Source of the DNA: Giardia intestinalis
Taxonomy: Eukaryota
NCBI GenBank assembly: GCA_000002435.2
Contig: CM018792.1
DNA length: 64,000 bases
Reading direction: 5' to 3' (one strand)
A program made the position numbers and the translations under genes. Positions 60,553-60,785 of the stretch are shown here, piece by piece. The number at the start of each line of letters is the position of its first letter. Position 1 is the first letter of the stretch. Below the pieces are notes generated by a model. The model had not been told where the DNA came from. It did not search any database and was given only the letters and a program-made list of their open reading frames with translations.

Positions 60553-60771
60553 GTGGGTGATTGCAAGCACTGTGTGGTGGATGATGTGTGTGGGGAGTGC
60601 AGTGATGGATACAGTCTAGACAGCAGTGGGGCCTCCTGTGTGTCTTCTAGCAGTAATAGGAGCGGGCTCTCCACGGGGGCCATAGCTGGCATCTCCGTCG
60701 CTGTCATCGCTGTCGTGGGGGGCCTCGTGGGCTTCCTCTGCTGGTGGTTCCTCTGTAGAGGGAAGGCGTGA
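60553..60771 (+). pseudogene. VSP C-terminal relic (72 aa: CXXC, transmembrane segment, CRGKA tail); no ATG
   Basis: ...[17 protein letters not shown]...[17 protein letters not shown]. Opens right after an in-frame TAG. The start is a GTG. About 88% nucleotide identity to the 3' 190 nt of the 33938-34381 relic. Confidence 0.7.
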
Positions 60772-60785
60772 CTTAGGTAGTAAAT
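60771..60785 (+). promoter_or_regulatory. Extended VSP poly(A) signal ACTTAGGTAGTAAAT overlapping the TGA
   Basis: Exact match to ACTYAGRTAGTRAAY. Confidence 0.7.

Follow-up and report, generated by a model that had tools for sequence, protein, structure and literature searches.

Two truncated VSP pseudogenes on chromosome 4 of Giardia lamblia WB, their junctions and their relation to neighbouring NEK genes

Why should two fragments of VSP genes lie close to two NEK kinase genes that themselves share a long tract of sequence? The question is raised by a stretch of 64,000 nucleotides of Giardia lamblia (Giardia intestinalis) WB, contig CM018792.1, the whole of which is referred to here as the window. 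It belongs to chromosome 4, on which the matching vsp genes have been placed in the table of Adam et al. (PMC2996952). The two fragments, referred to as relic A and relic B, had been described in an earlier sequence-only reading as promoter-less C-terminal relics that could be footprints of a duplicated VSP-NEK module or donor fragments for the recombination of VSP 3' ends. In the current analysis both are considered, with good confidence, to be non-functional 5'-truncated VSP pseudogenes of linear-array lineage that have been made independently of each other by short-homology (illegitimate) recombination. The anatomy of the relics, their junctions, the occurrence of the relic A junction in isolate DH, the existence of closer relatives elsewhere and the identity of the relics with the catalogued genes vsp12 and vsp14 have been observed directly.

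Anatomy and catalogue identity of the VSP tails

Only three CRGKA tails followed by a stop codon are encoded in the six frames of the window, namely those of relic A, relic B and a giant VSP of 1,983 residues (vsp13). Translation of 33938-34381 yields a tail of 147 residues rich in CXXC motifs with a transmembrane segment and CRGKA terminus, and that of 60553-60771 reads VGDCKHC...CRGKA followed by the stop. The transmembrane segment and the tail are present in both relics, which end in an 11-residue stretch followed by [VL]CRGKA and the stop. Both share similarity with the C-terminal end of the Pfam family PF03302 (VSP), at profile positions 261-397 in relic A and 356-397 in relic B, the E values of the two matches being 1.5e-20 and 3.6e-19, and neither tail is therefore a chance match. 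The content proposed for the two fragments, that is the last CXXC motifs, the membrane segment and the tail, is thus borne out.

The GTG codons that had been taken as the limits of the relics are not their limits. The frame of relic A is open upstream of the GTG, where it reads SVLVCENPLGTLVDPQGIAKAYVGVDGC, and its VSP homology reaches 33879 (SVLVCENPLGTLVDPQGIAKAY); tblastn places the start at 33869, giving a range of about 33869-33879. This upstream stretch corresponds to the canonical VSP sequence SVLACGNPLGTLVDPQGTAKAYVGVDGC of P0004 and P0009. The coding homology of relic B (GTGCTCTGTGAGTGATTGCAAG...) likewise begins ahead of the GTG, at 60546-60547. The absence of an ATG holds for relic B, which has no in-frame ATG, no VSP initiator (Inr) and two in-frame stops directly upstream, but not for relic A, which has in-frame ATGs at 33995 and 34106. 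The first of these opens an open reading frame (ORF) of 128 residues (33995-34381) that was annotated in 2007 and is 100% identical to XP_001709654.1, 'VSP [Giardia lamblia ATCC 50803]'. No hydrophobic signal core is found in the N-terminus of this ORF, MTAAICTSCDNSKKPNKGG, as judged by inspection with no predictor run. The absence of a signal peptide is thus upheld for both relics, relic B being without an ATG and having its stops two codons upstream.

The initiator [CT]AATGTT does not occur in 33000-35000, and its single copy in 54000-61000, at 54543, belongs to the giant VSP. The 50 nt upstream of the relics have an A+T content of only 40-54%, as against 72% for the giant VSP. Since the VSP initiator, the signal peptide and the upstream AT-rich region are all missing, neither relic would be expected to make a surface protein, a lack of expression that is deduced from the sequence. 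The description as promoter-less C-terminal relics stands, and agrees with a published class of VSP pseudogenes.

The extended VSP poly(A) signal, which has the consensus ACTYAGRTAGTRAAY and overlaps the stop, has been named a hallmark of VSP genes (Rodriguez-Walker et al., bioRxiv 10.1101/2022.03.07.483299). The earlier reading had ascribed it to both relics. It is perfect in relic B (ACTTAGGTAGTAAAT), as proposed, but degenerate in relic A of WB (ACTTAGATAATAACC), where a single mismatch of AGT to AAT leaves no AGTRAAY.

Both relics are already known, as genes catalogued in 2010 and as members of the pseudo-VSP class. The vsp genes are numbered by contig position in Additional file 1 of Adam et al. 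2010 (BMC Genomics 11:424, PMC2996952), in which vsp12 is listed as GL50803_13520, clade III, chromosome 4, without Inr, with 128 residues, 15 cysteines and 4 CXXC motifs and as 'complete'; vsp13 as LA_TR222 with TAATGTT on chromosome 4; and vsp14 as a linear array (LA) member on chromosome 4, without Inr, with 74 residues, 8 cysteines and 2 CXXC motifs. The ATG ORF of relic A (P0001) has exactly the composition of vsp12 (128 residues, 15 Cys, 4 CXXC), and the sequence of relic B from CYVGDC to CRGKA exactly that of vsp14 (74 residues, 8 Cys, 2 CXXC), placed after vsp13 with its 222-nt repeat; relic A and vsp12, and relic B and vsp14, are hence the same loci. The text of that paper singles out vsp14 as one that 'lacks an initiation codon', and counts three vsps devoid of ATG as 'inactive, truncated vsp pseudogenes' (PMC2996952). 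The catalogue calls vsp12 'complete' and leaves the ankyrin-RING junction described below unmentioned. A literature search on GL50803_13520 found nothing.

Pseudo-VSPs have been described as VSP-like sequences without a signal peptide, often in arrays and with no proper start codon (Xu et al., Sci Data 7:38, PMC7000408; Rodriguez-Walker et al., 10.1101/2022.03.07.483299). Both relics show VSP similarity and lack a proper signal peptide and/or start codon, and so belong to this class by definition. Among the published classes, ORFs that run from a Met to CRGKA without a signal peptide are of the relic A type, and those devoid of a start codon are of the relic B type (10.1101/2022.03.07.483299). 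Both probably fall within the set of about 208 pseudo-VSPs counted in the WB genome of 2020.

As originally posed the question is of little import, the relics being two of roughly 200 catalogued VSP pseudogenes and vsp14 the textbook example of the repertoire paper of 2010. New here are both microhomology joints, the fact that one of them truncates the ankyrin-RING gene and the occurrence of this joint in isolate DH, all of modest specialist value. The anatomy of the junctions provides a concrete and datable case of the scattering of VSP fragments and of the remodelling of regions rich in VSP, NEK and ankyrin genes.

Junctions of the two relics

Relic A is fused to an ankyrin-RING gene, the homology of which to intact copies stops at 33878, after the seventh zinc-ligand cysteine. 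The intact gene of isolate DH shares a DNA identity of 98.9% with the window over 696 nt, ending at 33878, and the match to the Pfam RING profile zf-C3HC4_3 ends at position 40 of 49. A RING finger of the zf-C3HC4 type calls for eight zinc ligands, the last of them in a CPxC pair. Four intact homologues, from DH contig 155, the assemblage B isolate GS and metagenomes, end in ...CGKDVASKVCPACNKPVEEFMEVFK, that is ...VCPACNKPVEEFMEVFK. In the window the terminal ...PACNKPVEEFMEVFK is gone after the seventh cysteine, and nothing of the ankyrin-RING C-terminus is left after ...VC either here or in DH contig 14.

In a three-way comparison of DNA the intact RING gene reads ..AAGGTCTGTCCCGCTTGC, the window ..GAGGTCTGTCCTGGTCTGCGAGAACCCCC and the VSP of comparator L015 ..CAGTCTGTACTGGCATGTAGTAACCCCC. 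Because a stretch common to the RING gene and the VSP is revealed by this comparison, the joint is placed within GTCTGT(CC), over 6-8 nt. The two frames do not agree across the joint, and the RING ORF reads through 17 VSP-derived codons to a stop. The last ~167 VSP codons would thus have been joined at GTCTGT[CC] to the ankyrin-RING gene, an event that would have removed the last 15 codons of the latter, including its final zinc-binding cysteine, and left the VSP codons in another frame. Microhomology-mediated joining or template switching is the repair route that we infer for such joints.

A frameshifted fusion of the two genes, in which one G has been removed and CPVCENPL resembles the final CPxC, was considered and rejected; the intact homologues end in CPACNKPVEEFMEVFK, and SVLxCxNPLG is canonical VSP sequence.

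The same joint (..AAGGTCTGTATTAGCCTGTGGTAACCCCC) is found in contig 14 of the A2 isolate DH (L001, AHGT01000014), with the same order of ARP-1, NEK, ankyrin-RING and VSP fragment. As the joint is shared by WB and DH contig 14, the event is older than the separation of these two copies. The shared block of 6 kb, with ARP-1, NEK1 and the ankyrin-RING gene fused to the pseudo-VSP, extends over 28376-34401 and matches positions 4635-10502 of the DH contig; the flanks on both sides are unrelated, and the 3' limit of homology lies 20 nt past the stop of relic A. Within the block the NEK DNA of WB and DH is about 80% identical (73-82%). The ankyrin-RING body, in comparison, is about 99% identical among WB (33189-33878), the truncated DH copy (9228-9972 of L001) and the intact DH copy (4480-5224 of L003). 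This difference between the ankyrin-RING body and the adjoining NEK DNA points to a putative conversion tract, with the VSP joint as its 3' limit. Identity between WB and DH over relic A ranges from 68% to 98% per 50 nt, and such patchiness is no proof of rapid turnover, as the WB and DH loci may, from these identities, be old paralogues rather than orthologues. DH contig 14 is at most a possible strict orthologue of the WB locus, since the sequences on either side of the block are different and identity in the NEK DNA is only about 80%. DH contig 218 (L016) was rejected as the true orthologue; it starts inside a VSP and continues into another array member and not into the genes found downstream in the window.

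The 5' end of the ankyrin-RING gene of WB is also altered. At 33112-33190 the native start, MAFIEAAK, has been lost through an 8-nt gap and substitutions, and the ORF now opens at an upstream ATG with a novel N-terminus of 26 residues, so that both ends of the gene are damaged. Because the native start is lost as well, the WB copy is probably itself a pseudogene.

Relic B has a different partner. The sequence-only reading placed it 56 nt past the stop of the giant VSP with a perfect ACTTAGGTAGTAAAT, which is found to be so, the signal lying at 60771-60785; in the current analysis it begins 49-56 nt past the vsp13 stop, on the same strand and without Inr, and it is listed as LA. It thus has the features by which downstream members of linear arrays are recognised (same strand, within 241 bp of the upstream VSP, without Inr), whereas relic A, having the ankyrin-RING gene and not a VSP as its upstream neighbour, lies outside any array. 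Relic B resembles the published linear arrays (PMC2996952) in its upstream VSP on the same strand, its spacer of ~50-56 nt (published mean 60 bp), the lack of Inr and the conserved spacer sequence. It differs in length, as typical downstream members comprise 169-660 residues with most of the ectodomain and relic B only 74 codons.

The stretch 60509-60561 aligns with the conserved array spacer of L015, ACTTAGGTAGTGAATGCTGTACAGTG...GGGTGATAGTGGGTGAT, which is also found in L016 and in the metagenome scaffold L017. Positions 60546-60561 align both to this spacer and to VSP coding sequence, the overlap being GTGCTATGTGGGTGAT, and the 9-nt GTGGGTGAT inside the overlap, common to spacer and coding sequence, is the junction microhomology of relic B. 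In ordinary arrays the spacer leads into a VSP that is without the leader only (..GTGATATGCAC = ICT...). In relic B the conserved spacer of ~50 nt that follows a VSP poly(A) signal would have been joined at GTGGGTGAT to the last 74 codons of a VSP. Relic B is most simply viewed as an ordinary array member from which nearly the whole ectodomain may have been deleted between two GGGTGAT sites.

The spacer between array members is conserved as ACT[CT]AGGTAGTGAATGCT[GA]TACA[AG]TGTGTGATAATGGGTGATAG...GTGATATGCAC (L015 631-711; L016 452-540; L017 2117-2172; window 60509-60548), and its GGTGAT-type repeats could supply microhomology for the formation or deletion of arrays. No comparator locus for relic B was found in other isolates, whose short-read contigs with CTP synthase end 200-670 bp before the VSP region.

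Relatives of the relics and alternative explanations

When anchored at the stop, the two relics share 156 of 177 nt (88%), and blastn gives 88.2% over 187 nt (34207-34393 against 60597-60783), in agreement with the figure of about 88% over the last ~190 nt stated earlier. Upstream of this tail they part company. Relic B is 86-88% identical over all of its 74 residues to P0014, P0010, P0015 and P0009, WB VSP entries of 169-183 residues, and downstream array members of 183 residues (vsp61, vsp64) are found in the catalogue (PMC2996952). Relic A aligns to relic B over the last 63 residues only, and its nearest proteins are P0004, P0002, P0003 and P0005 (82-84% identity). The last 177 nt of relic A show identities of 92% to L015, 90% to L016 and 88% to relic B, and over the last 122 nt relic A matches L016 at 118 positions, L015 at 115 and relic B at 105. 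The 55 nt at the start of the tail are the one part in which each relic has the other as its best match (51/55). There the two encode an identical motif of 17 residues that is carried by none of the 120 other relatives, nor by the tail of the giant VSP, the latter as the sequence-only reading had observed. They are thus mutual closest relatives only in this patch, and not over the full protein length or the last 122 nt, in a compared set that does not include the full WB repertoire at the DNA level.

The subfamily of relic A (P0002-P0005, P0008) is characterised by GYSPD..GTSC, in place of which relic A of WB has SLDSSGAS, typical of the relic B subfamily. This patch looks, from the subfamily patterns, to have been imported from the relic B subfamily. 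Relic B itself is unlikely to be the donor, because the codons that follow, SGANRGG, match L015 and not relic B (SSSNRSG). The 55-nt patch could be a small conversion patch or could derive from a shared donor outside the compared set, and a third gene with AGTGATGG[GA]TACAGTCTAGACAGCAGTGGGGCC, if found, would support such a mosaic or conversion reading. The longest identical run between the relics outside the universally conserved transmembrane region is ~35 nt, which at 12% divergence is not significant by a rough estimate. The similarity of 88% is mostly a matter of family-wide conservation of VSP 3' ends, to which patchy gene conversion has probably added.

A metagenome scaffold (L017, 164-2116) encodes a VSP of the relic A type that is almost full-length, lies within a linear array of three members and has a single in-frame TGA (..AYVGVDGC*QC..). 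The first tail of this scaffold is 93.5% identical to that of relic B over 123 nt.

It is against this background that the derivation of both relics from one ancestral, duplicated VSP-NEK module has to be judged. Each relic is found no more than about 1.2 kb from a NEK gene, and the two NEK genes have in common, as the earlier reading had recognised, a tract, which is internal to them and measures 1,325 nt at 93.6% identity (30999-32322 against 60982-62305 in the self-blast). The tail similarity of the relics and their common 17-residue motif with its mutual best match of 51/55 could be taken as further marks of such a module. The adjacency itself is confirmed for relic B, which lies 88 nt upstream of NEK2, but needs qualification for relic A, which is separated from NEK1 by the ankyrin-RING ORF of 272 codons. 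The order is NEK1, ankyrin-RING, relic A at one locus and relic B, NEK2 at the other, so that in the self-blast the NEK tract and the relic tail appear as two separate, non-colinear matches in opposite relative order, with relic A 3.2 kb downstream of the point at which the NEK tract begins and relic B 385 nt upstream of it. Ahead of the tail that they share, the relics fall into different VSP sublineages, and over the last 122 nt relic A is nearer to L016 and L015 than to relic B. Their junction partners, an ankyrin-RING gene in one case and a VSP 3' spacer in the other, and their microhomologies are unrelated, and the block shared with DH has relic A with NEK1 and nothing that resembles the relic B arrangement. 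NEK and ankyrin genes are, moreover, dense here (7 ankyrin, NEK or ARP genes in 64 kb) and known to cluster with VSPs. The WB genome encodes 184 NEKs and about 300 ankyrin-repeat proteins, and its synteny breaks lie in regions enriched for both and for cysteine-rich proteins (Xu et al., PMC7000408). Since these families are numerous and enriched in rearrangement-prone regions, the adjacency of a relic and a NEK is expected, and the nearness of the relics to NEK and ankyrin genes reflects this known co-clustering. The proposal of a duplicated module is thus very improbable and is set aside, and the mosaic pattern of relic A fits conversion-prone VSP 3' regions and not a duplicated module.

The other explanations concern the present role of the relics more than their origin. 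The suggestion that they are retained as a silent store of donor cassettes, the conserved 3' ends of which would permit gene conversion into expressed VSPs and so widen the antigen repertoire, would be compatible with their status as pseudogenes, and on our analysis it is unlikely though not negligible. Such a role has been proposed for downstream array members by Adam et al. 2010 (PMC2996952), who also obtained statistical evidence that VSP 3' regions recombine and who propose that these members are unexpressed. It would agree with the mosaic appearance of relic A, in which SLDSSGAS replaces the subfamily motif, and with the uneven identity of WB and DH over it. Mosaicism, however, indicates that relic A may have received sequence and not that it has donated any; the uneven identity could be ordinary divergence if the WB and DH loci are old paralogues, as the flanking NEK DNA at ~80% allows; the poly(A) element of relic A is decaying in WB, which suggests no selection; and VSP switching, as far as the repertoire paper describes it, is epigenetic and not recombinational (PMC2996952). 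That relic A is a functional short gene, either as the 128-residue ORF or as an ankyrin-RING fusion, is hardly credible. Although it is annotated as 'VSP' in XP_001709654.1 and listed as the 'complete' vsp12, its ORF is intact in WB, an ATG ORF of 158 residues is called in DH, and the deletion of a single G at 33880-33881 would join the RING frame to the VSP frame, the N-terminus MTAAICTSCDNSKKPNKGG is without a hydrophobic signal sequence, an Inr is missing and A+T makes up only 40% of the 50 nt upstream. Further, the ORF opens at different start codons in WB and in DH; the protein occurs only in the set derived in 2007 and is not on record among called genes; the rules of 2020 class VSPs without signal peptide as pseudo-VSPs (PMC7000408); and in WB as in DH the VSP frame is shifted against the RING frame, the stops falling at different positions. 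A further possibility, which we regard as doubtful, is that relic A serves as the 3' untranslated and polyadenylation region of a truncated ankyrin-RING transcript, a use that would be a by-product and not a VSP function. Because no AGTRAAY occurs on the + strand in 33150-34700, relic A supplies the earliest poly(A)-like element beyond the stop of the ankyrin-RING ORF (33930), and any transcript of this ORF would probably run through relic A; the ankyrin-RING body is, besides, about 99% identical to its intact paralogue. Against such use, the element is degenerate in WB (AATAAC), the ankyrin-RING gene has lost its start and its last zinc ligand and is probably a pseudogene itself, and 46.8% of the mapped poly(A) sites of WB are without a prominent signal motif.

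Independent truncation by short-homology recombination is therefore preferred for both relics, and some points weigh against it. The lengths of the microhomologies are set by comparators from other isolates or metagenomes (L003, L015) and not by the parental sequences, and at the relic A joint they are 8 nt in WB but 6 nt in DH. Relic A retains an open ATG ORF of 128 codons within an open frame of 200 codons that extends back into the RING gene, so that translation is conceivable from the reading frame. Family conservation alone does not account for a 17-residue motif that, among 120 relatives, only the two relics carry.

In a wider sense, VSP 3' cassettes may be general breakpoints of illegitimate recombination that reshape non-VSP genes and move blocks of genes, with pseudo-VSPs that swap patches and are possible donors of tails; we put this forward tentatively, as a possibility that is rather less likely than otherwise. 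Relic A would then be a scar at which a captured VSP tail truncated the ankyrin-RING gene, the resulting 6-kb block having come to lie in different contexts in WB and DH. Small patches, such as the 55 nt common to vsp12 and vsp14, would still be exchanged, and pseudo-VSPs would be live members of the recombination pool. A conceptual parallel is provided by the VSG pseudogene archive and the mosaic VSGs of Trypanosoma brucei, in which truncated antigen pseudogenes are stored in large number and, with their 3' ends conserved, are potential donors of segments. Giardia differs in that segmental donation from pseudo-VSPs to expressed VSPs is not known in it, switching being described as epigenetic in the repertoire paper (PMC2996952). 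If pseudo-VSPs do donate to expressed VSPs, the view of antigenic variation in Giardia as based on a fixed repertoire would change; nothing here shows donation.

Neighbouring genes and features

The coordinates of the relics and of the features around them are collected in Table 1. No close counterpart of NEK2 is found in other sequenced isolates, the next best match being only 62% identical, and the region of vsp13, vsp14 and NEK2 therefore appears to be specific to WB or to assemblage A1.

Table 1. Relics, joints and adjoining genes in the window (positions from the first nucleotide of the stretch)
Feature	Position	Strand	Remarks
NEK1 (kinase + ankyrin)	30649..32733	+	shares 30999-32322 with NEK2
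Ankyrin-RING (ARP-2 type) ORF, 272 codons, truncated by relic A	33112..33930	+	last 17 codons are out-of-frame VSP DNA; native N-terminus lost
Junction microhomology GTCTGTCC	33871..33878	+	common to RING gene (..AAG GTC TGT CC) and VSP (..G TCT GTC CTG); 6 nt in DH copy
Relic A, vsp12 / GL50803_13520 pseudo-VSP	33879..34381	+	VSP 3' remnant; ~167 VSP codons, SVLVCENPLG to CRGKA; without signal peptide and Inr
Degenerate extended poly(A) element ACTTAGATAATAACC of relic A	34381..34395	+	no AGTRAAY; DH copy keeps AGTAAAC
Complete giant VSP, vsp13	54545..60496	+	TAATGTT initiator; 222-nt repeat, 26 copies; 1,983 aa; first of two-gene linear array
Giant VSP 3' flank, shortened linear-array spacer	60497..60545	+	own poly(A) element at 60509-60523
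Relic B, vsp14 pseudogene	60546..60771	+	VSP 3' remnant; 74 VSP codons CYVGDCKHC...CRGKA + stop; no in-frame ATG, no Inr
Extended poly(A) element of relic B, perfect (ACTTAGGTAGTAAAT)	60771..60785	+	
NEK2 (kinase + ankyrin, 861 aa)	60860..63445	+	88 nt downstream of relic B; 100% identical to WB 'Kinase, NEK' P0126

The repeat tract of vsp13 (54604-60366) consists of 26.0 copies of the 222-nt unit with 100% matches and no indels. In the assembly of 2007 the gene had 8 repeats and 725 residues, as against 26 repeats and 1,983 residues here. Two antisense ORFs of 1,997 and 1,917 residues that lie over vsp13 are stop-free artefacts of the repeat. Between the CTP synthase gene and the giant VSP (51224-54544) there are ~3.3 kb without a convincing gene, and the short-read assemblies of many isolates break 200-670 bp from the CTP synthase gene on its VSP-facing side.

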